From sequence record MW233709: a DNA stretch of 64,000 nucleotides. One strand, 5' to 3'. Under the pieces are notes generated by a model, which was not told where the DNA came from, did not search any database, and was given only the letters and a program-made list of their open reading frames with translations. Positions 49,472 through 60,978 of the stretch are shown in pieces. The position numbers were made by a program, and so were the translations under genes. The stretch is from Escherichia phage UPEC01. Each line of letters starts with the position of its first letter. Positions within the stretch are counted from its first letter, which is position 1.

Positions 49472-50070
49472 AATGACTTCTCCATCTCACGGATTAATGC
49501 CGAAATAAATGATTCGATATCATTAGGGTCGATTATCTTTATTTCTCGTTTATATTCATTTTTGCGAATAGCGTCTTCATAGATATCTACTGCAGCTAAT
49601 GGACCTTCATATTGTGGGTACAATTTATTCTTATCACCTTTATCATACCAGGTGTACGGATTATCAGGATAAGAAACAAGATTCCAGAATTTTTCACCAT
49701 CTTCATTTACATGATAAAGAACCTGATTACCACCTATATTCGAATAGCGTTGAATTGATGCCTGATACGATGATTCTTGTGAACATATCCAACCATAATA
49801 AGGGTCATAGATATTATTAAGCATAAGGAGAACCCAATAGAGTTGCGTGTTTCCATAGAGCTGGTATGCAAGTTCTTCAGGTCTCGGAGCTCCGGCGATG
49901 TAATGCGTTTTCGGTGTATAATTAACCGCAACCTTATCAAAATAGGCACGATAGTTTCTGAAGATGTCAGTCATCGGGATGCTTAAGACGTCTTCTTTCG
50001 TTAATGATGCCGAGTTTTTTCTGATTGTTTTAGCATCATAATCAATTGGGTTAAAAAATGAAAAAAGCAT
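49468..50070 (-). CDS. 53: baseplate wedge subunit gp53
   Basis: Start at ATG 50070: MLFSFFNPIDYDAKT...IPMTDIFRNY...YWVLLM...YDPYYGW matches T4 gp53 (196 aa). Confidence 0.88.
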   Translation of the reverse strand: MLFSFFNPIDYDAKTIRKNSASLTKEDVLSIPMTDIFRNYRAYFDKVAVNYTPKTHYIAGAPRPEELAYQLYGNTQLYWVLLMLNNIYDPYYGWICSQESSYQASIQRYSNIGGNQVLYHVNEDGEKFWNLVSYPDNPYTWYDKGDKNKLYPQYEGPLAAVDIYEDAIRKNEYKREIKIIDPNDIESFISALIREMEKSL

Positions 50071-50082
50071 AAAGCCTCCATT

Positions 50083-50090
50083 TATAAATA
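50083..50090 (+). promoter_or_regulatory. late promoter TATAAATA (gene 4)
   Basis: Octamer 28 nt upstream of gp4 ATG. Confidence 0.7.
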
Positions 50091-50118
50091 AGTATATCAA
50101 TATTTATTAGGAGGCTAT

Positions 50119-50568
50119 ATGGCATACTCCGGGAAATTTAAGCCCACCAATATAGAAAAATATAAGGGCGACTGGAAGAAAATACAATACCGGTCAAGTT
50201 GGGAGGCTTGGCTGATGAGATGGCTCGACAACCATCCGAACGTTGTTCAATGGGGTTCTGAGACTGTGATTATTCCATACTTCTGCAACGCGGAAGGGAA
50301 AAAGCGCAGATATTATATGGATTTCTGGGTTAAGTTCGATACGGGGCAACAGTTCTTTTTCGAAGTTAAACCATTAAAAGAAACAAGACCCCCAACCAAA
50401 CCGGCCAATAATACCACTGCGAGTAAAAAGAGATTTATTAATGAGATGTACACCTGGAGCGTTAACTCTGACAAATGGAAAGCTGCGCAAGCTACCGCGG
50501 ATAAGATGGGTATAACGTTCAGGATAATCACTGAAAACTCACTGAAAAAATTAGGATGGAAAGGATGA
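50119..50568 (+). CDS. 4: head completion protein gp4
   Basis: 149 aa; [28 protein letters not shown]...[18 protein letters not shown] matches T4 gp4 (150 aa); late promoter 28 nt upstream. Confidence 0.88.
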
Positions 50569-52748: not shown

Positions 52749-53438
<690 letters not shown>

Positions 53439-53439
<1 letters not shown>

Positions 53440-53478
53440 TGTACAAATGAGTGTAGGTGCAGTATTATGTTCCTACAC
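53439..53478 (+). promoter_or_regulatory. early promoter / stem-loop cassette H (GTGTAC, 18 nt, TATTAT; -10 enclosed by inverted repeat GTGTAGG/CCTACAC)
   Basis: Immediately after 57B stop; same architecture as cassettes at 54422, 54755, 55065 and 58809 but a different stem sequence. Confidence 0.55.
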
Positions 53479-53499
53479 CAATGAACGAACGGAGTTAAA

Positions 53500-53832
53500 A
53501 TGAACATCAAAACTTACAACGAGTTTTTAGCCGAATCCGCCATCAATGAGACCAAATCAATTGATGATAGTGAAGGCTCTCTGAAATTTGGTTTATCCAA
53601 AAATGCAGATGGTGTTTTCTTTCAGATTGGTAATGAACGTTTTCAAACGTCCAAATATTCCAAAGCTGCAGTTGAAGCTGTCCTGAAATCTGGTGGCAAG
53701 TGGAAAGGCAAAGAAGGTACTAAAGAAATTGGTATCGCTGTTGACGGCGGTATGGCTTATTTTAAAATTGGCGATGAACAATTTATTATGTCTGCTCGCG
53801 GACGTAAAGAACTGGCAAAACTTTATAAATAA
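53500..53832 (+). CDS. internal-protein-like gene 1 (capsid-targeting leader MNIKTYNEFLAE)
   Basis: 110 aa; N-terminus matches the T4 IPI/II/III targeting leader MKTYQEFIAE with an LxE cleavage-type motif; first gene after promoter H. Confidence 0.6.
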   Translation: MNIKTYNEFLAESAINETKSIDDSEGSLKFGLSKNADGVFFQIGNERFQTSKYSKAAVEAVLKSGGKWKGKEGTKEIGIAVDGGMAYFKIGDEQFIMSARGRKELAKLYK

Positions 53833-53840
53833 GGTTTCTT

Positions 53841-54113
53841 ATGAAAACTTTCAATGAATTTTTCAACGAGTCACAACTGAATGAAGAAGTAAAAATTAGT
53901 AAAGCAGTCAAATCTATGATTGACAATATCAATCACCTGTATAGCATTGACTTGACTGACCATATAACAATTGGTAACAAACGCAACTTTTTCGCGTTTG
54001 ACATTTCAGAACTTGACCAGAACCAAATTAATAACATTGAGCGTTTTGCCAATGACAAGGGTCTCCGTCATGAGACAGCTGGTTATAAAAAATATGCAAT
54101 TTATCTAAAATAG
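53841..54113 (+). CDS. internal-protein-like gene 2 (leader MKTFNEFFNE)
   Basis: 90 aa; leader-like N-terminus; 8-nt spacing from previous gene; body unrelated to neighbours. Confidence 0.6.
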   Translation: MKTFNEFFNESQLNEEVKISKAVKSMIDNINHLYSIDLTDHITIGNKRNFFAFDISELDQNQINNIERFANDKGLRHETAGYKKYAIYLK

Positions 54114-54121
54114 GATTTCAA

Positions 54122-54421
54122 ATGCAAACTTTTCATGAATTTTTGGTAGAAAACAATTACCTGGCAGAAGCAAAAACCTGGCCTCTGGGTCTTCAGAAGA
54201 AAAACACCTACAAATGGGTTGACTTCAAAGGTAAAGGCGACGCTGAAGACTTTGACCAGCTGCGTAAAAATGGTTATACCTTCCTTGACTCTAACTATAA
54301 CAAAATTACCTCTTTTAGTCAGAAGTCAAGCATTGCCTTCATTGAAACTGGTAAGAACTCTCCTAAAGATATCACTGACGACTTCACCGCTTATGGTGTA
54401 ATTCGTGGTTCAAAAATGTAA
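54122..54421 (+). CDS. internal-protein-like gene 3 (leader MQTFHEFLVE)
   Basis: 99 aa; leader-like N-terminus; 8-nt spacing from previous gene. Confidence 0.6.
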   Translation: MQTFHEFLVENNYLAEAKTWPLGLQKKNTYKWVDFKGKGDAEDFDQLRKNGYTFLDSNYNKITSFSQKSSIAFIETGKNSPKDITDDFTAYGVIRGSKM

Positions 54422-54458
54422 TGTACACGATGGGATAGTTGCAGTATAATTATCCCAT
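54422..54458 (+). promoter_or_regulatory. early promoter / stem-loop cassette A (TGTACA, 17 nt, TATAAT; inverted repeat ATGGGATA/TATCCCAT)
   Basis: -10 hexamer lies between the two 8-bp arms; followed by CAACTACTGGAG (RBS) and ATG 54477. Confidence 0.55.
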
Positions 54459-54476
54459 CAACTACTGGAGCTACTA

Positions 54477-54755
54477 ATGAAAACTTATCAAGAATTTATT
54501 AACGAATCAATTAGTCACCCGGATATGCTGGAAGACCTGAAAGGACATCTGATGGTTAAGGCCAAACCGGTTGATGGTGGCGCATTTGAGTTGTTTCTTG
54601 TTAAAGGCGAAAACGGTCCTGATAACAAGAAAGTTTCAGCAATGATGTTGACTAAAGGTTACAAAGTCAGTTCTTCCTGGAATGCTCCATTCACTTACGC
54701 GGTAAGCCCTCGTGAACTGAAAAAAGTTAAAGCTGGACAATATACAAAAATTTAG
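54477..54755 (+). CDS. internal-protein-like gene 4 (leader MKTYQEFINE)
   Basis: 92 aa; leader-like N-terminus; own early promoter/stem-loop cassette upstream. Confidence 0.6.
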   Translation: MKTYQEFINESISHPDMLEDLKGHLMVKAKPVDGGAFELFLVKGENGPDNKKVSAMMLTKGYKVSSSWNAPFTYAVSPRELKKVKAGQYTKI

Positions 54756-54793
54756 TGTACGTGATGGGATAACTGTAGTATGATTATCTCATC
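54755..54793 (+). promoter_or_regulatory. early promoter / stem-loop cassette B (GTGTAC, TATGAT; ATGGGATA/TATCTCAT)
   Basis: Near-identical to cassette A with one arm mismatch; precedes ATG 54810. Confidence 0.5.
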
Positions 54794-54809
54794 AACTACT
54801 GGAGACCAC

Positions 54810-55064
54810 ATGAAAACTTATCAAGAATTTATTACTGAATCTGCAAATGCAAAAGTTGAGTTTGCTTATGTTGGTTCGCCGCGTGGCAGTTTTTCCAATG
54901 AGGAATTCCGTCGTTCACTGGACAATTTCATGCAGTTAAGTGCTGAAGTATCGCATGATGGTCGTTATGACATCGTTACTATTAGCGGTTCTGAAGACCT
55001 TATCAAAAAGTGGCACAAGCAGAAAGATGTTGAGATGCGTTACTATCGTATCCCTAAAAAATAA
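54810..55064 (+). CDS. internal-protein-like gene 5 (leader MKTYQEFITE; possibly IPI-like)
   Basis: 85 aa from ATG 54810 (GGAG RBS); leader-like N-terminus; own promoter cassette; size similar to T4 IPI (95 aa). Confidence 0.6.
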   Translation: MKTYQEFITESANAKVEFAYVGSPRGSFSNEEFRRSLDNFMQLSAEVSHDGRYDIVTISGSEDLIKKWHKQKDVEMRYYRIPKK

Positions 55065-55101
55065 GTGTACTTTTAAATGGGATAGTGTATGATTATCCCA
55101 T
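55065..55101 (+). promoter_or_regulatory. early promoter / stem-loop cassette C (GTGTAC, 17 nt, TATGAT; ATGGGATA/TATCCCAT)
   Basis: Same cassette as A; precedes ATG 55122. Confidence 0.55.
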
Positions 55102-55121
55102 CAACTACTGAGGAGAATAAA

Positions 55122-55307
55122 ATGAAACGTTGCGAATTAATTAGAAATGTTACTGCCCTTGTTGCTGTTACCACTTTTGGTTTTAGCATGTTTGCTGGCT
55201 TTATGTTGAATATGCTTTCAACTTCTGAGAATATAATCTCTTTAGTAGTTGCATTTTTAATTGGTTCAATCTCTTTCGTTATGGATAAAATCTCTAAAGG
55301 TGAGTAA
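55122..55307 (+). CDS. small hydrophobic membrane protein
   Basis: 61 aa from ATG 55122 (GAGGAG RBS); two hydrophobic helices (VTALVAVTTFGFSMFAGFML, IISLVVAFLIGSISFV). Confidence 0.5.
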   Translation: MKRCELIRNVTALVAVTTFGFSMFAGFMLNMLSTSENIISLVVAFLIGSISFVMDKISKGE

Positions 55308-55308
55308 A

Positions 55309-55698
55309 ATGTATAAAGTGTATGCGGATTATCAGGCAAATCCATCTGAAAAACCAGATTGTCAAATTGGGTGGGCGCATGACACCCTGCTTGAAGCGGT
55401 AGACGAAGCTCAAAAATTAGGGTATAGTTATGTAGATATTGTTCAACCAAATGGAACAGTTATTACACTTGAAGAATTCAAGAATATCAAAACAAACTTT
55501 TTGCTTTTTGCAGGTGATAGCTATTATCCTCGTGGCGGTTATGCTGACTTAATCGCAAAGGCTGCGACTGAAGATGAACTGCGTGATATCATTAAAGAAA
55601 ACGAGAAGAAGCCTTGTTATGGTTCCAACCGTTTTGACTGGTGGCAGATTGTTAATGCCAATACGCATACTATTGTTGATGAAGGAACATGCGAATGA
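55309..55698 (+). CDS. hypothetical protein
   Basis: 129 aa from ATG 55309 immediately after previous stop; GGTGAG RBS. Confidence 0.55.
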   Translation: MYKVYADYQANPSEKPDCQIGWAHDTLLEAVDEAQKLGYSYVDIVQPNGTVITLEEFKNIKTNFLLFAGDSYYPRGGYADLIAKAATEDELRDIIKENEKKPCYGSNRFDWWQIVNANTHTIVDEGTCE

Positions 55699-56171
55699 AT
55701 ATCAAATTTGGTCAGACCATCCCTAAAGGTTATGTGATTGAAATTGAAACCTGGGAAAATGATGGTGACAACTATAAAACCCAAACGGTATTTGGCGTAG
55801 AAGAACAAGAAATCCAGCAGTACAAATATATCCTGGAACTTTTCCATGGTTCGCATTGCAACAACCGCAACAAATGTGGTAATTCAGAATGGGATGTGGT
55901 TAAACACTTGGTTATCGCCCACATTGCATCTGGCGTAAAATCTGGCCAGTTGACTTATGAATTTTTGGATAAAGTTCTTGGTATCCAAGACTTAGAAGCC
56001 TTGCTGAATGATGATGAAGAAGCATACTATTTGAATGAAGCCCTTACTGAGCTCCTTGGTATGGCTTGCGAATATGATGGCGATTTCATGCGTGTAATTT
56101 CTTATGTTAAGCTATATATAATCGAAGAAGAAATCCGAATCCCATCTGTTAAAGGGCTTGATATGCTTTAA
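55695..56171 (+). CDS. hypothetical protein
   Basis: 158 aa; ATGA coupling with previous gene; GAAGGAA RBS. Confidence 0.55.
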   Translation: MNIKFGQTIPKGYVIEIETWENDGDNYKTQTVFGVEEQEIQQYKYILELFHGSHCNNRNKCGNSEWDVVKHLVIAHIASGVKSGQLTYEFLDKVLGIQDLEALLNDDEEAYYLNEALTELLGMACEYDGDFMRVISYVKLYIIEEEIRIPSVKGLDML

Positions 56172-56291
56172 CAAAAACGCGTTATTATTAATAAGTACCC
56201 TCTATTACCAAAGGTTCTTCCCTCAAAGAATCTTTCATAATAGCATGTGCTATTAATCAAACTTACTTTACTTAATTTTACTTGAGGTGTT

Positions 56292-56561
56292 ATGTTAGTA
56301 TTAAAATTAGCTTTTTACGACCCTAAAACAAAGACAACCACTACCAAACGTTGCTCTATTTCGTATGAGTGTCAATTTGGTGAAATTCAGCATCCAACAG
56401 GCGAAACCTTTATGTCAATTGGTTGTTCAACATTCAATAAAGTCAAATTAATCCCGTTGGTTAATACGGCGGCTTATCTGGTTGCTCCAGAAGAAATGAC
56501 TTATCATACAATTCAGCATATGGTTAAAGATGATAATGCTCCTGCTGGATTTGTAATTTAA
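56292..56561 (+). CDS. hypothetical protein
   Basis: 89-aa ORF with GAGGTG RBS; ends 5 nt before the first tRNA. Confidence 0.5.
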   Translation: MLVLKLAFYDPKTKTTTTKRCSISYECQFGEIQHPTGETFMSIGCSTFNKVKLIPLVNTAAYLVAPEEMTYHTIQHMVKDDNAPAGFVI

Positions 56562-56566
56562 TTTTA

Positions 56567-56640
56567 GGCCCTGTAGCTCAATTGGTTAGAGCATCCGGCT
56601 CATAACTGGCAGGTTTCCGGTTCAAGTCCGGATGGGGCCA
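56567..56640 (+). tRNA. tRNA with CAU anticodon (Met or lysidine-type Ile)
   Basis: Cloverleaf by hand: acceptor GGCCCTG/TGGGGCC, D-arm GCTC-AATTGGTTA-GAGC, anticodon loop CTCATAA (one U-C mismatch in stem), T-arm TCCGG-TTCAAGT-CCGGA; T4 itself carries a CAU tRNA-Ile. Confidence 0.8.
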
Positions 56641-56642
56641 CC

Positions 56643-56719
56643 CGGGGTGTAGCTCAATTGTATAGAGCAACGGTCTTCTAAACCGTAGGTTGTGGGTTAG
56701 AATCCCACCACCCCGACCA
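56643..56719 (+). tRNA. tRNA-Arg (anticodon UCU), CCA encoded
   Basis: Acceptor CGGGGTG/CACCCCG, D-arm GCTC...GAGC, anticodon stem ACGGT/ACCGT with loop CTTCTAA, T-arm GTGGG-TTAGAAT-CCCAC, then A-CCA; T4 encodes tRNA-Arg(UCU). Confidence 0.85.
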
Positions 56720-56734
56720 ATTACTGAGGATATT

Positions 56735-56974
56735 ATGGTTATTAGTGAATCATATGCAGTTATGGATATAACCAGCAACGAGCTGGTTTATAGCTTTGAT
56801 GAGTTTGACGAAAATGATAAACAAGTCCCATGGTTTGCATTAACTGCTCCACCTGAACATAATAAATATCTAAGTTTCCCGACTCGCAGACTAGCAACAA
56901 ATTTTATGGAATTCAATGACCTTGATTCCAATTATAAGGTTGTTAAAGTCAAATTAGCTATTACAATTGAATGA
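56735..56974 (+). CDS. hypothetical protein
   Basis: 79 aa from ATG 56735 (GAGGA RBS); the longer track ORF (56690) would overlap tRNA-Arg. Confidence 0.45.
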   Translation: MVISESYAVMDITSNELVYSFDEFDENDKQVPWFALTAPPEHNKYLSFPTRRLATNFMEFNDLDSNYKVVKVKLAITIE

Positions 56975-57164
56975 GAAGCCGGGTCGCTACCGGTAAGTCG
57001 TCGGGGCCTGTTCCCTGGGGTATTGTTCCTCCCACAGTTTTCTGTGTTCTGGTTCTTTACTATCACATCAGGCACGGCGCACCTTTTACGGAGTTTTTCC
57101 AGAGCGGGCGGTGCGCCCGGTAGTATGAGAAATCCGAGCGGATGGTGCATCCGGTACTATGGAA
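56975..57164 (+). ncRNA. candidate small stable structured RNA (cf. T4 species 1/2 RNAs next to the tRNA genes); speculative
   Basis: About 190-nt non-coding, unusually GC-rich segment directly after the tRNAs, with several stable stems (e.g. GGCGCACC...GGTGCGCC, CGGATG-gtg-CATCCG). Confidence 0.25.
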
Positions 57165-57172
57165 TATAAATA
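57165..57172 (+). promoter_or_regulatory. late promoter TATAAATA (leader-bearing ORF 57204)
   Basis: Octamer 31 nt upstream of ATG 57204. Confidence 0.6.
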
Positions 57173-57203
57173 TTAACAACAACCCTAATAATGGAAAAAC
57201 AAA

Positions 57204-57587
57204 ATGCTTACATATGCAGAATTTTTAAATCGCAATACCATCACCGAATCCGTACTGACTGAAGCTGGCAAATTTTCTTTAGTGGCTCCAGAAAAAGCCG
57301 GCGTTTCAATTGGTGACCGTGTTATGTTCAAGAAACCAGTTAATGGCGTTTCTTGGGGTATCGTAACTGGGTTTGGTATCAAAGCTAAAGATGTTAAAAA
57401 CGCCGCCGCGCCAGGTGCTAAACTAGCCGGTTCCAAAGTTTCAACTTATATGGTTCGTCCTAAACAGTCTCCAGGTAATGGTGCCGCTGACTGGGTTGGT
57501 GCTCCAATCGAAATCGCTCGTGATAAATTCTTGAACATCACTGACCGTGCCAACGAACGCGCTGCAATGGCATTCGCTCGCGGATAA
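57204..57587 (+). CDS. internal-protein-like late gene (leader-like MLTYAEFLNRNTITE)
   Basis: 127 aa; N-terminus resembles the capsid-targeting leader with an ITE motif; late promoter TATAAATA 31 nt upstream; terminator downstream. Confidence 0.55.
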   Translation: MLTYAEFLNRNTITESVLTEAGKFSLVAPEKAGVSIGDRVMFKKPVNGVSWGIVTGFGIKAKDVKNAAAPGAKLAGSKVSTYMVRPKQSPGNGAADWVGAPIEIARDKFLNITDRANERAAMAFARG

Positions 57588-57623
57588 GAACACTTGCCTT
57601 GCAGGTGGAACCCCGACAAGGTA

Positions 57624-57652
57624 TAGCCCCTTCCGAAAGGTTGGGGCTTTTT
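57624..57652 (+). terminator. rho-independent terminator after ORF 57204
   Basis: GCCCCttCCgaaaGGttGGGGC followed by T6. Confidence 0.7.
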
Positions 57653-57676
57653 TATAAATCAACTAAAGAGAAACGT

Positions 57677-58231
57677 ATGAAACTGTTAAAATATTTGAGT
57701 TGGATTCTGTTAGTTCCGCTGGATTTTATCTCCATGATTCTGGCCGTTATCCTGGCTCCATTTGTAGTTCCGTTCCATAATAAAAAGACTGGTAAACTTC
57801 CGTTCGGGTTTGATTGGATGATGACTTATGATAATCCGATTGATGGTGACCGTGGTCATATCAAACGTTGGTCAAAAATCCGAAAATGGCCATTAGGTGT
57901 TTACTTCCAACGAGTAGCCTGGCTCTGGCGAAACAAAGCATACAATTTTGCTTACCACAAGCTCGGTCGTGATTGCAATTCAGAATTCCATTATAAAGGT
58001 AATCCTGATGTTGAATCTGGTTCCCCAGATAAAGCTCATCATGGATGGCTCTTTATGTGGACGGACAATGCCTGGGGTGTTTTTGCTTCTGTTCCTTATC
58101 TTAAGGTCGGTGGAATCACCTTTTATCTGCGTGTTTATTGTGGCTGGAAGCTCAAGAGCCTTCTGTCCCGACCCATCCCTAAGGCTATGCTCGCCTTTCA
58201 TATAAATCCGTTCCGCTTTTATAAGAACTAA
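57677..58231 (+). CDS. hypothetical membrane-anchored protein
   Basis: 184 aa from ATG 57677; N-terminal hydrophobic helix LLKYLSWILLVPLDFISMILAVILAPFVVPF; terminator downstream. Confidence 0.5.
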   Translation: MKLLKYLSWILLVPLDFISMILAVILAPFVVPFHNKKTGKLPFGFDWMMTYDNPIDGDRGHIKRWSKIRKWPLGVYFQRVAWLWRNKAYNFAYHKLGRDCNSEFHYKGNPDVESGSPDKAHHGWLFMWTDNAWGVFASVPYLKVGGITFYLRVYCGWKLKSLLSRPIPKAMLAFHINPFRFYKN

Positions 58232-58255
58232 CAGCCCGCATTGCGGGCTTTTTTA
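58232..58255 (+). terminator. rho-independent terminator after ORF 57677
   Basis: GCCCGC-att-GCGGGC followed by T6. Confidence 0.8.
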
Positions 58256-58291
58256 TACCCCGAATAAATTTGAAATTTTCTTCAAAAAGTA

Positions 58292-58340
58292 GTGTACATC
58301 CAAATTGTCTGGGTGCATAATGATTCCATACTGAGTTACA
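58292..58340 (+). promoter_or_regulatory. early promoter cassette E (GTGTAC, 18 nt, CATAAT, then leader GATTCCATACTGAGTTACA)
   Basis: Upstream of ATG 58373; leader shared with cassettes at 20758 and 59361. Confidence 0.5.
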
Positions 58341-58372
58341 CACTGAATCAAACAAAACTTTGGAGAAATAAA

Positions 58373-58798
58373 ATGAACTTTCTGACCCTGACCTCTGCAT
58401 TCTCTGTTACCCGCATCACTAACAAAATGGTTGCTGACGAAGTATGTGAAATCTGCATTCGTGAAGATGCACTTATCCATCTGACTTCAACCCAGATTGT
58501 TGCCATTGCCAAGTCCCTTAATTCTGAACTGAAGGTAAACACCAAACAGTCAAAAGAATCTATCATTGAATTAATCCAAGCTGAAATGATTGAATTCCCA
58601 ATTGAAGAAGTTAAAGAAGAAAAAATCCAGTCCAAATCTGGTAACGCTCGTGACATTTGCTTCCAGGCATTTGCAGAAATTGATATGAATGATAATGCAG
58701 CTCGTCGCGCTCTGATTGATGTTCTGGTTACCACCCATGATATCAAAAAGACTGTTGTTCAGTCATATGCATCCAACTTCCGCAAAGCTCAAAAATAA
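58373..58798 (+). CDS. hypothetical protein, paralog A (shared C-terminal domain with 58882..59325)
   Basis: 141 aa; C-terminal ...NDNAARRALIDVLVTTHDIKKTVVQSYASNFRK; own early promoter (GTGTAC, 18 nt, CATAAT). Confidence 0.55.
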   Translation: MNFLTLTSAFSVTRITNKMVADEVCEICIREDALIHLTSTQIVAIAKSLNSELKVNTKQSKESIIELIQAEMIEFPIEEVKEEKIQSKSGNARDICFQAFAEIDMNDNAARRALIDVLVTTHDIKKTVVQSYASNFRKAQK

Positions 58799-58808
58799 TT
58801 GAGAAAAG

Positions 58809-58858
58809 TGTTTTACTTCCAGATGGGATAGTGTATAATTATCCCATACTGAGTTACC
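58809..58858 (+). promoter_or_regulatory. early promoter / stem-loop cassette D (GTTTTAC, TATAAT; ATGGGATA/TATCCCAT) fused to the ACTGAGTTACC leader
   Basis: Hybrid of the stem-loop cassette (A-C) and the CATACTGAGTTAC leader family; precedes ATG 58882. Confidence 0.5.
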
Positions 58859-58881
58859 AAATAAACAAACGGGAAAATAAA

Positions 58882-59325
58882 ATGAAAACTTCAAAACTGG
58901 TTAAGTATGTTAAACTGGCATTAAACAACTCTTCTGAAGCTGAAGCACAATCCGCAGCACGTATGTTCTTCAAACGTCTGACAGCTGAAGGTATTTCATT
59001 TAACCCGGCAGTATTTGGTATCACTCGTGGCGAAGCTGCTAAACTGGCAACTCTGGCAGGTAAAATTTTTAAAGGTCTGAATGATGGACAGGTTAAACCA
59101 GAAGTTAAACCTACTCCTAAAGCTGAACCAAAAGCTGAACGTAAGGCACCTAAACGCTCCGGTATGAGCAACAAAGATTTATGCTATGATATGTTCAAAA
59201 CTGTTAATATGTCTAATGGTGCTGCTCGCAGAGCTGTTATTGATATGATTGTGCGTGAGTTTGGATTCAACAAAGCATCAGTTCAGTCTTATGCTTCCAA
59301 CTTCCGCAAAGAATTTGAAATTTAA
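58882..59325 (+). CDS. hypothetical protein, paralog B (shared C-terminal domain with 58373..58798)
   Basis: 147 aa; C-terminal ...SNGAARRAVIDMIVREFGFNKASVQSYASNFRK; own promoter/stem-loop cassette. Confidence 0.55.
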   Translation: MKTSKLVKYVKLALNNSSEAEAQSAARMFFKRLTAEGISFNPAVFGITRGEAAKLATLAGKIFKGLNDGQVKPEVKPTPKAEPKAERKAPKRSGMSNKDLCYDMFKTVNMSNGAARRAVIDMIVREFGFNKASVQSYASNFRKEFEI

Positions 59326-59407
59326 TTAAAAAGGGGGTATACAAGCCCCCTGCTTTAAGGCATAATGATTCCATACTGAGTTACACAATAAAACACTGGA
59401 GAATAAA

Positions 59408-59713
59408 ATGAAATTCATCATCAACCTGGCGCTTGTTGACTTTGATAAAACTGGTAATTTCGCATCTGCTGAAAATATGATTCGTAACACCAAGTTCAAA
59501 GTGCAAGTCCAACAGGCGGTAGCAAAAGAGTTCTTTACTGATAAATTAACTAACGTTGTTAATCACCTGAATGTGCAAGTTAAATTCACTCGTGAAGCGG
59601 AAACTACTGTTGCATTTGATTTTGACTGCCAATACCATGATGAATATGTTCGCCGCATCCTGGATATTGTGTCTGATGAACTTTATTATGGTGTGCAGGA
59701 AAACAAAATCTAA
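59408..59713 (+). CDS. hypothetical protein
   Basis: 101-aa ORF with GGAG RBS; preceded by the conserved leader CATAATGATTCCATACTGAGTTACA. Confidence 0.5.
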   Translation: MKFIINLALVDFDKTGNFASAENMIRNTKFKVQVQQAVAKEFFTDKLTNVVNHLNVQVKFTREAETTVAFDFDCQYHDEYVRRILDIVSDELYYGVQENKI

Positions 59714-59717
59714 ATTA

Positions 59718-59749
59718 GTGCTTTAATGGGAACATGATAGTATGTTCCC
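59718..59749 (+). promoter_or_regulatory. MotA-box middle promoter with -10 enclosed by inverted repeat GGGAACAT/ATGTTCCC
   Basis: TGCTTTA 59720-59726, 11-nt spacer, TAGTAT; 8-bp perfect inverted repeat with 6-nt loop; precedes ATG 59786. Confidence 0.45.
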
Positions 59750-59785
59750 TGGATAATAAAACTTTAACCATCTGAAGGAAATACC

Positions 59786-60379
59786 ATGAATACTTTAAAG
59801 AAACTTGTTGAATTCATCCGCTCCAAACTGGGTACTGCAATGGCACAAAACCTGTCTATTGAAGACCAGTATACTAAAGCTGCTTCTACCCTGATTGATA
59901 AGATTACTGAGCTCCAGACTGCCCATGTTAAGTCTGTTAATGAAGAAAAACGCATTCGCGAGTTAGCGAATGAAAAAGACCAGCTCGCTTCTTCTAAAGA
60001 ACGCGAAATTCGTAAACTGATTGCTGATGGTGCTGATGTCCAGGTCCATGCTAAACTGGGCCTCCTGTATCGTCGCACTGCTAAACAACTTCGTAAGAAG
60101 GCAGATGATTATGTTGAAATGCGTAATGAAATTAAATTGAAAGTTAAAGAGCTGGATGATTCTCGTCAGGAACTAGCTGTTAAACTGGAATATATCCGCG
60201 AAACCCGTAAGGTATCTGCCCTGGGTATTGCGACTGCAGATGATGTTGTTGAAATCGCTGCATTGACTAAGATTGATATTGAAGACACCCTGATGCGTGT
60301 TGAAACCTTCAAAGGTCCACAGGTTGGTGTGGATACCACGTCAGCTGACATTGAAGAATACATCAATTCACTTAAGTAA
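59786..60379 (+). CDS. hypothetical coiled-coil protein
   Basis: 197-aa ORF, charged heptad-like repeats; middle-promoter/stem-loop upstream and terminator downstream. Confidence 0.55.
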
Positions 60380-60382
60380 GAT

Positions 60383-60407
60383 AAAAGGGGGCTTTGCCCC
60401 CTTAATT
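60383..60407 (+). terminator. terminator-like hairpin after ORF 59786
   Basis: GGGGGC-ttt-GCCCCC followed by a short T-rich run. Confidence 0.55.
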
Positions 60408-60423
60408 GGGAGAGGAGAATATT

Positions 60424-60978
60424 ATGAGCTTATATACTGACCTTATATCAAATGTAGACTGGTTTGGTGGTAGTGGCCTTGCTACTGAAACTAATACAGT
60501 TCTTTATAGAATCCGTGGTGACTTGGGTTATTCCAATGATTTCTTAAGAAGAACAACAAGTCGCGGCGATACTACCAAATTGCCTTTTATTTTTGCTTTA
60601 GCTGAAGACCTTTCTTTCGCAGATGCCTTGGAAATTATTGACGTAAATCTGGGTATTCAACGAGTGGAATTCGCTGGACTACGTTATTCAGTATATGCTT
60701 TAAACGAGAGCAATGATTGCATACTTCTTAATATGGCAGATGATGATTACCATTTAGTATGTTATGTGGCGCTAGAAAATGGTGATGTATTTGGAATGGT
60801 TGACCGACGGCCAGCTTATACTGATATTAAAAATTATGATAAAGCTGAGCTTGCTATTTTGACTAATGAGTACACATTAGAATGTCATAAACAAAAACGT
60901 AAGCTTAATCGTTTTATTGCTGAATGTCGTGAATATGCTAAAGGGGTTCAAAATGCGAACGTTATATCTGCCAAGTAA
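60424..60978 (+). CDS. hypothetical protein
   Basis: 184 aa from ATG 60424 (GGAGAGGAG RBS). Confidence 0.5.
   Translation: MSLYTDLISNVDWFGGSGLATETNTVLYRIRGDLGYSNDFLRRTTSRGDTTKLPFIFALAEDLSFADALEIIDVNLGIQRVEFAGLRYSVYALNESNDCILLNMADDDYHLVCYVALENGDVFGMVDRRPAYTDIKNYDKAELAILTNEYTLECHKQKRKLNRFIAECREYAKGVQNANVISAK

Follow-up and report, generated by a model that had tools for sequence, protein, structure and literature searches.

Why do several short intergenic spacers of Escherichia phage UPEC01 (sequence record MW233709) hold an inverted repeat whose arms enclose the -10 hexamer of a promoter, and does such a repeat act as DNA or as RNA? The question is raised by six cassettes near the end of a 64,000-nucleotide stretch of this genome, hereafter the window. 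The window shows 99.5% identity to Escherichia phage TH41 and is collinear with vB_EcoM_VR20 (Gaprivervirus, Tevenvirinae); judged from its sequence, it is a T4-like Gaprivervirus genome. The genes of the locus follow in the order 57B, five internal-protein (ip) genes, trna.4, trna.3, two tRNA genes and small accessory genes, and the cassette region is the classical hyperplastic ip locus together with the accessory stretch beyond the tRNAs. The initial annotation, made from the letters alone, had listed six promoters followed by inverted repeats and had read them as selected structures or dyad operators belonging to mobile regulatory cassettes. The present analysis points to composite cassettes of the type known as promoter-early-stem-loop elements (PeSLs) and their Mot-box versions (PmSLs), in which the stem probably has a boundary role at the level of RNA.

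Architecture of the Cassettes

The dyads were located by direct reading of positions 53200-55400 and 58600-59900 and by an exhaustive scan for perfect inverted repeats; all six were found just where the initial annotation had placed them. The cassettes, here numbered c1 to c6, lie on the + strand. Cassette c1 (53437-53502), between gene 57B and the first ip-leader gene, has the -35 box TGTACA at 53440-45, the arms GTGTAGG (53451-57) and CCTACAC (53472-78) separated by a loop of 14 nt, the -10 box TATTAT at 53463-68, a Shine-Dalgarno (SD) sequence at 53491-94 and the ATG at 53500. It is kept in Gapriverviruses, one variant having the stem slid inward (GTAGGTGC/GCACCTAC). Cassette c2 (54419-54479) begins with the stop codon TAA (54419-21), which is followed by the -35 box TGTACA (54422-27) and by the arms GATGGGATA (54429-37) and TATCCCATC (54451-59) around a 13-nt loop; the -10 box is TATAAT (54445-50), the predicted start lies at about 54457, and SD GGAG (54467-70) precedes the ATG (54477) of an ip-type gene. 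Cassette c3 (54753-54812), with GTGTAC at 54755-60 and TATGAT at 54779-84, has the arms GATGGGATAA (54763-72) and TTATCTCATC (54784-93) with a loop of 11 nt. One G·T wobble makes this repeat imperfect, and the VR20 orthologue has a perfect stem and TATAAT. The SD of c3 lies at 54801-04 and the true ATG at 54810 (MKTYQEFITE).

Cassette c4 (55062-55124), located 5' of trna.4 and orthologous to the T4 ipI|trna.4 spacer, combines GTGTAC (55065-70) and TATGAT (55088-93) with the arms ATGGGATA (55077-84) and TATCCCAT (55094-101), a 9-nt loop, SD GAGGAG (55110-15) and the ATG at 55122. The mechanical list of open reading frames (ORFs) starts two genes at 54780 and 55089, on ATGs formed by the -10 TATGAT and the 3' arm (ATGATTATC...); the true starts of those two ORFs are 54810 and 55122, supported by SD sequences and conserved N-termini. 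Cassette c5 (58796-58884) has TTTTAC at 58811-16, TATAAT at 58834-39, the same arms as c4 (58823-30 and 58840-47), likewise with a loop of 9 nt, and the ATG at 58882; its stem is extended by CAG/CUG. Cassette c6 (59711-59788), 5' of the e.6 homologue (ATG 59786), is PmSL-like with a middle promoter: the MotA box TGCTTTA (59719-25) is followed by the arms GGGAACAT (59728-35) and ATGTTCCC (59742-49), separated by a loop of 6 nt.

The rule that the arms flank the -10 hexamer is strict in c1-c5, where the hexamer lies inside the loop, but not in c6, where TAGTAT (59738-43) spans the loop and the 3' arm. It stands 12 bp from the MotA box, whose consensus is a TGCTT core 12 ± 1 bp from the -10 (PMC2988021). 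The -35 boxes had been given as GTGTAC or GTTTAC, or a MotA box. GTGTAC or TGTACA occurs in four of c1-c5 and the MotA box in c6, but exact GTTTAC occurs in none, c5 having TTTTAC. The -35 box of four among c1-c5 is one base off the TTTACW of the T-even promoter consensus TTTACW-N17-TAYWAT (PMC4122927); the distance from -35 to -10 is 16-18 bp in c1-c5, the -10 is TATTAT, TATAAT or TATGAT, and an A-rich tract (CAAAAAT, AAAAAATAA) stands ahead of the -35. As originally reported, three stem sequences are used. One of them, that of c4 and c5, is repeated in four cassettes, in one of these with a G·U pair. Four cassettes start directly at the upstream stop codon or no more than 1 nt away from it and the other two 5 and 12 nt beyond it, so that the description "right after the stop codon" fits the first four only. 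Measured over all six, the -35 or MotA box comes 0-12 nt after the stop codon, and both SD and ATG are reached within 17-45 nt beyond the stem. The TATAATTA of the cassettes was considered as a possible late promoter; it differs from the late motif TATAAATA.

A chance origin of the dyads is excluded. The pattern of the c4 arms spaced by 6-20 nt is found three times in the window and in none of 100 shuffles. Promoter-regex sites whose -10 is enclosed by perfect arms of 7 bp or more occur five times on the + strand and never on the - strand, and the same count in 100 dinucleotide shuffles has a mean of 0.38 and a maximum of 3. All such sites lie at 53.4-59.8 kb, with none in 50 kb of late genes. 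The RNA folds of the six hairpins range from -12.2 to -16.8 kcal/mol with z scores of -2.4 to -4.9, c2 being the most stable (-16.8 kcal/mol, z = -4.9; c1 -3.1, c3 -2.4, c4 -2.9, c5 -3.8, c6 -3.0). Rfam covariance models run over 53000-60500 returned the two tRNAs and sub-threshold noise, with no match at the cassettes.

Two further + strand cassettes are absent from the initial list. Cassette c7 (58229-58375) contains a canonical terminator at 58233-54 (AGCCCGCATTGCGGGC followed by T6), GTGTAC at 58292-97, CATAAT at 58316-21 and a spacer hairpin CATCCA/TGGGTG (58297-315) with a U·G pair; a repeat around its -10 was not found. Cassette c8 (59323-59410) has a hairpin AGGGGG/CCCCCT (59332-51) over the -35 TATACA (59338-43), with the -10 CATAAT at 59361-66. 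Its 5' untranslated region (5'UTR) module is that of c7, and only c8 carries a G5/C5 stem. The z scores of these folds are +0.3 (c7) and -2.0 (c8). An AT-rich repeat at 56273-56308 was dropped as a cassette candidate, as it overlaps the start and first codons of the ORF at 56292.

Conservation of Pairing in Related Phages

The initial annotation had argued from the different stems on one architecture that the structure is selected. Within one genome this covariation is weak evidence, since the cassettes are paralogous; the argument was confirmed by compensatory change in three orthologous families. For this comparison, about 75 oriented loci were collected from GenBank phages, IMG/VR and metagenomes by protein-anchored retrieval, which was used instead of a contig scan because the conserved 14-mer CAACTACTGAGGAG gave 120 mostly unrelated contigs and a 23-mer gave 4. 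The first 55 loci yielded 123 unique promoter cassettes. In 55% of them the -10 is enclosed by perfect arms of 7 bp or longer, and the control, in which the left flank of one cassette is matched with the right flank of another, gives 7%. In T4, the repeat around the -10 is found at eight of the nine early-promoter spacers between regB and 57B, with all stems different; the spacers of the ip locus (57B|ipI, ipI|trna.4, e|ipIII, ipIII|ipII, ipII|denV) all have this design. The T4 records NC_000866 and AF158101 contain no promoter annotation.

At least eight different stems occur at the single orthologous site 5' of trna.4, namely that of c4, GATAGGGTA/TACCCTATC, ATAGGGT/ACCCTAT, GGGCTNTAG/CTATAGCCC, AGGGCTAT/ATAGCCCT, GGTCTAG/CTAGACC, a shifted ACCACA/TGTGGT and a 15-bp stem reaching from the -35 to the AUG. 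In the alignment of this site (13 unique sequences), 95.7% of the cells are paired and three pairs are changed on both sides, with G:C and A:U exchanged at two core positions. These values are reached in none of 500 shuffles, and no double changes appear when the 3' partner is slid. The eight core pairs comprise 101 Watson-Crick cells, 3 G·U and none broken. The alignment of the site upstream of e.6, which includes c6 (6 unique sequences), is 100% paired with four of seven pairs compensatory, again in none of 500 shuffles. It spans three lineages, Gaprivervirus, Dhakavirus (as annotated) and vB_Eco_CP (a record without a genus), and the register relative to the -10 is identical across them. 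Upstream of e.7 (7 unique sequences), 97% of the cells are paired and two pairs are compensatory, a score matched by 12 of 500 shuffles. The path from the T4-type to the window-type stem passes through G·U intermediates.

Loss of the dyad in related genomes had been named as an outcome that would count against a selected structure. The dyad is kept, the three families being 96-100% paired, and on the evidence of these alignments the hairpin is maintained by selection on pairing while its sequence changes by compensatory substitution.

In the e.6 family, the c6 stem, -10 and 5'UTR are joined to three upstream modules (window 59714-59727; L001 16320-16345; L168/L171): a MotA box in the window (AGTGCTTTAAT), a GTGTAC -35 in L168/L171 (AGTGTACGCTTTAAC) and GTTTAC in VR20. 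The L168/L171 form involves an indel of 4 nt where the stem begins on its 5' side, by which an early promoter is converted into a middle one or the reverse.

Chimeric Cassettes and Recombination Breakpoints

Cassette positions coincide with gene-content breakpoints. When the window is compared with 13 Gapriverviruses, 44 of 61 homology-block ends (72%) fall within a cassette ± 45 nt, which amounts to 13% of the region, and 13 of the 61 fall at other gene junctions, which make up 22% of it. Three events separate the window from VR20. In the first, the body of an ip gene is replaced: homology stops about 45 nt into the leader (54856) and returns at the next cassette (55051). In the second, VR20 has an extra gene between two cassettes where the window has one hybrid cassette, and the crossover lies inside the shared CCATACTGAGTTA (58835-58884). 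In the third, another extra VR20 gene has its junction at 59715-59727, just 5' of the c6 stem.

The cassettes also resemble one another in patches and form the direct-repeat families D2, D3 and D6. Cassettes c2 and c3 are 85% identical over 60 nt (D3), c4 and c5 88% over 34 nt, and c7, c5 and c8 have a common 5'UTR module. Cassette c5 is a chimera: its promoter-hairpin half is 88% like c4, 3.7 kb away, its 5'UTR half (CCATACTGAGTTAC...) is like that of c7 and c8, and the joint (families D6 and D2) lies at the 3' end of the stem. The view that these are mobile regulatory cassettes of the PeSL type has held up, as the architecture matches published subclasses and the breakpoints fall in cassettes.

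Relation to PeSL and PmSL Elements

Arbiol et al. 2010 (PMC2839356) defined PeSLs in phages RB49 and phi1 and distinguish five positions of the stem-loop relative to the promoter, of which a place between -35 and -10 and one that overlaps the -10 are the most frequent. Promoter and terminator activity as well as mini-circle excision were demonstrated only for RB49/phi1 elements. According to the same source, PeSL-like elements also flank the IP genes of T-even phages; they have T4 early promoters and stems that are "weaker, more AT-rich", and are classed as analogous rather than homologous to the RB49 PeSLs. Comeau et al. 2014 (PMC4122927) extended PeSLs to PST/T4 and nt-1/KVP40 and named the Mot-box versions PmSLs.

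The window cassettes are like the RB49/phi1 elements described there in that they are intergenic from the stop codon onward and contain a -35 and a -10 about 17 bp apart, a stem-loop, an SD and a start codon; both are repeated, clustered in hyperplastic regions and flank indels or replacements. Unlike them, the window cassettes have T4-early-type -35 boxes (GTGTAC/TTTTAC) and A+T-rich stems, whereas the RB49/phi1 elements have near-perfect sigma-70 promoters (TTGACA -35) and polyG/polyC stems. With regard to the defining features of PeSLs that can be read in a sequence, the cassettes have the stop/SD bounds, the early promoter, a stable stem-loop, repetition and the breakpoint position, and c6 has those of a PmSL (TGCTTTA 59719-25, 12 nt, TAGTAT, stem 59728-49). 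Sequence homology to the RB49/phi1 elements was not found, the stems being that of c4, GTGTAGG and that of c6 and the -35 GTGTAC. In terms of sequence features, the cassettes belong to the PeSL/PmSL-type functional class and not to the RB49 sequence family, because no sequence is shared with that family and its authors themselves call the T-even elements analogues. The PST/T4 PeSLs and PmSLs of the 2014 paper share with the window cassettes the T-even promoter consensus, the Mot-box versions and the tie to gene-content differences, including those in ip genes. They differ in stem position: for PST a figure legend puts the stems "just upstream of the promoter", whereas the T4 ip spacers and the window have one arm on each side of the -10.

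For a T4 specialist the finding is ordinary; the design has already been described. In 1994 Repoila reportedly described the same 57B-ip-tRNA locus with ip ORFs that share a leader, conserved promoter-containing spacers and ip genes shuffled among relatives. A T4 omics paper does not mention ip genes, and a 2025 paper on injected proteins contains nothing on the spacers.

The Level at Which the Stem Acts

The kind of mismatch tolerated in the stems bears on the question of DNA or RNA. The raw count of internal non-canonical pairs over unique hairpins is GT 10, TG 4, AC 2 and CA 1, some being false positives from coding regions. After hand removal of these and of shared ancestry, about 12-13 G·T/T·G stand against three A·C/C·A (binomial estimate about 0.02). 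Sense folds are on average steadier than antisense folds (Wilcoxon p = 0.001, for sequences that are not independent). Together, the G·U bias and the stability of the sense strand argue that the structure forms on a single strand, for which the sense RNA is the simplest candidate, and would not be produced by a cruciform or by a protein site on double-stranded DNA.

The position of the stem is equally informative. Counted onward from the -10 in 77 unique cassettes, the median distance is 0 nt to the start of the 3' arm and 8 nt to its end. Since the stem ends at the expected sigma-70 start, the cassette's own transcript would be free of the hairpin, which would be carried only by read-through RNA. 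Arms of 7 bp or more on both sides of the -10 are present in 90 of 151 cassettes that have no terminator-like hairpin upstream and in 2 of 26 that have one (Fisher p = 6e-7), and none of about seven independent post-terminator families, by our own grouping, has them. This inverse relation suggests that the embedded stem stands in for the boundary hairpin of the upstream message.

The following explanation, the most probable one, is therefore proposed for the cassettes. A spacer of about 60-90 nt packs a stop codon, a predicted T4-type early promoter (in c6 a MotA-dependent middle one), a hairpin, a short 5'UTR with SD and the next start codon. The hairpin arms sit in the only promoter positions that are free of constraint, namely the -35/-10 spacer and the discriminator. 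As the stem ends at about the predicted +1, the cassette's own transcript would lack the hairpin and read-through RNA from upstream would contain it. There it most probably serves as a boundary element that attenuates transcription and/or shields the upstream message at its 3' end, so that each small gene would be insulated as an expression unit of its own. Repeated at 75-90% identity together with the ip leader codons, the cassettes probably also provide homology patches for the insertion, deletion and swapping of accessory genes. Cleavage by RegB at the GGAG of a cassette, with the hairpin protecting the upstream fragment, is a plausible candidate mechanism.

Several observations weigh against this explanation. 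Promoter activity and start sites are predicted from consensus only. The excess of G·U over A·C amounts to about 15 events, de-duplicated by hand. The e.6 promoter orthologues of several Tequatroviruses (L128, L133, L134, L135) are good early promoters with no inverted repeat, and the stem is accordingly dispensable for that promoter. Breakpoints at gene boundaries are partly expected regardless of the local sequence. A run of at least five T within 8 nt after the stem occurs in none of the 77 cassettes (mean 2.1 T), the G+C content of the stem is 44%, the terminator scan flagged none of the -10-flanking hairpins, and the cassettes do not have the G+C-rich stem plus U-tract of a canonical intrinsic terminator. 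The sole late-promoter motif within the ip locus, TATAAATA at 53824-53831 (+ strand, in the last codons of the first ip-leader gene), lies 5' of c2 and c3, so that strong termination there would block the late expression of downstream head proteins; we infer that late transcripts from it must read through both cassettes to reach the downstream ip genes. Finally, the spacer hairpin of the c7 family covaries among Gapriverviruses (CATCCAG/CTGGATG, CATCCGG/CCGGGTG; A:T to G:C via G·T) and is retained despite a strong terminator 40 nt upstream, which hints at a promoter-linked role and misfits a pure RNA boundary. A strict rule of one hairpin per spacer was dropped on account of c7, in which a terminator and a spacer hairpin occur together.

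If the stems were efficient factor-independent terminators, each gene would be transcribed from its own promoter only. The case for this is that the G+C-rich stem-loop of RB49 PeSL211/210 reduced the expression of a lacZ fusion about as much as rrnB T1, according to Arbiol et al. (PMC2839356), and that the repeat around the -10 is missing where a canonical terminator stands upstream. Like intrinsic terminators, the cassette hairpins come straight after the stop codon, and in these spacers the two are mutually exclusive. Unlike them, they have no U-tract, a stem of lower G+C content (A+T-rich, 7-10 bp) and a long loop. As the terminator scan is silent, the T-even stems are the ones called "weaker, more AT-rich" in the same source, and c2 and c3 stand in the path of late transcripts from 53824, this alternative is unlikely.

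The c7 family, the very constant register relative to the -10 and the presence of the same stem under early and middle versions of a promoter would also suit a stem that belongs to the promoter, extruded from supercoiled DNA as a hairpin or cruciform that exposes the -10 as a single strand or otherwise tunes promoter melting. This is quite improbable. A cruciform on both strands predicts equal G·T and A·C, whereas G·T was seen to outnumber A·C by about 4:1; extrusion is poor for stems of 7-8 bp that close loops of 9-14 nt; stem-free orthologous promoters exist; and the constant register is also explained by the few free positions in a 60-nt spacer. Phage N4 virion polymerase uses hairpin promoters. 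A special form of the DNA-level idea is that the stem extrudes from freshly injected supercoiled DNA and gives host sigma-70 polymerase a pre-melted -10 on the strongest early promoters. If true, this would be the sigma-70 counterpart of the N4 hairpin promoters, but the bias of G·U over A·C and the hairpin-free orthologues oppose it and make it highly improbable.

The stem might also be functionless, a by-product of cassette duplication and recombination that is kept palindromic by template-switch (quasi-palindrome) correction during T4-type replication. Short homologies do serve T4-type phages for recombination (PMC9391042), the chimeric make-up of the cassettes is plain to see, and the stem is missing in some orthologues. 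Such a process gives no account of the 55-60% of promoters with a repeat in the same register, where 7% are expected, nor of the inverse relation to terminators or the G·U bias, and there is little probability that it explains the stems.

In T4 e, 49, soc and I-TevI the promoter lies inside an RNA helix that masks the ribosome binding site in longer transcripts (PMC3014915). The window cassettes share with this design the promoter between the helix strands, own transcripts without the 5' strand and longer ones that fold. Whether they also gate translation, read-through RNA hiding the ribosome site, depends on the 3' strand. In the gene-e-type design it holds the SD or AUG and the promoter is late, whereas the 3' arm of the six cassettes extends no further than +1, with 8-26 nt between it and the SD, and leaves the ribosome site free. 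SD and AUG are unpaired in the minimum-energy folds of the six whole spacers, and the SD is overlapped by only one of 77 perfect stems. Translational gating, although an established T4 design, is for these cassettes very unlikely.

The gene-e-type design itself is present elsewhere in the window and among its relatives. At 50060-50124 (+ strand), a late motif TATAAATA (50083) sits inside a hairpin AGCCUCC/GGAGGCU (about 50073-50116) that masks the SD of the gene at 50119, with a fold of -18.1 kcal/mol and z = -4.1. At the T4 regB and denV early promoters (L002 742-800, 3357-3416), a CUCC-type 5' arm pairs with the downstream GGAG. The 5' arm likewise pairs with GGAG in some trna.4-upstream orthologues, and in L140 and L163 the 15-bp stem runs from the -35 to the AUG. 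Going by the predicted pairing, these regB, denV and trna.4-upstream hairpins mask the ribosome site in read-through RNA.

The dyad operator of the initial annotation, in which a dimeric phage or host protein would bind half-sites over the -10 and shut the promoter, has the classical repressor position and one half-site sequence common to four window cassettes in its favour, but it is hardly credible, because there are at least three unrelated stems in the window and at least six in T4 alone, the half-sites are 5-21 nt apart, orthologues alter both half-sites and keep pairing rather than sequence, and the wobble intermediates are strand-specific; of the two readings first offered, the selected structure is the one supported, with its pairing kept in orthologues.

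Neighbouring Genes

The ip locus of the window consists of five tandem small genes on the + strand (53500-53832, 53841-54113, 54122-54421, 54477-54755 and 54810-55064) that share an internal-protein N-terminal leader, a five-copy repeat (family D1) spanning 53500-55064. The leader N-termini are MNIKTYNEFLAE, MKTFNEFFNE, MQTFHEFLVE, MKTYQEFINE and MKTYQEFITE, and PHROGs assigns the label "internal head/virion protein" to three of the five genes. The late motif at 53824-53831 stands 10 nt ahead of the following gene; for the two genes that come after it, the spacer is 8 nt long and holds no cassette.

Immediately 5' of c1 lies gene 57B (52984-53439), which PHROGs and RefSeq call "RNA ligase"; its counterpart in the record of phage EAWsc9 is annotated as "anti-CBASS protein Acb1". 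The tRNA genes at 56567-56640 and 56643-56716, between the ip locus and the accessory run, correspond to Met-CAT and Arg-TCT in the VR20 annotation. In the accessory run, two neighbouring genes, 58373-58798 and 58882-59325, have 3' ends with 94% identity over 31 nt (58757-58787 and 59281-59311), which points to a common C-terminal segment and provides extra homology beside c5 and c8.

Significance

Three points were not found in the available sections of Arbiol 2010 and Comeau 2014: the compensatory maintenance of the stem via G·U, the coincidence of the stem's end with the predicted start site of its cassette, and the inverse relation to canonical terminators. They turn the long-assumed "terminator" half of PeSLs into a testable hypothesis at the level of RNA, in a group, the T-even phages, whose stems lack the hallmarks of terminators. 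More generally, it is at these cassettes that T4-like phages trade accessory genes, including those for injected anti-defence (internal) proteins. Knowing where they lie makes gene-content differences among therapeutic or environmental isolates easier to predict, and they offer natural insertion sites for engineering.

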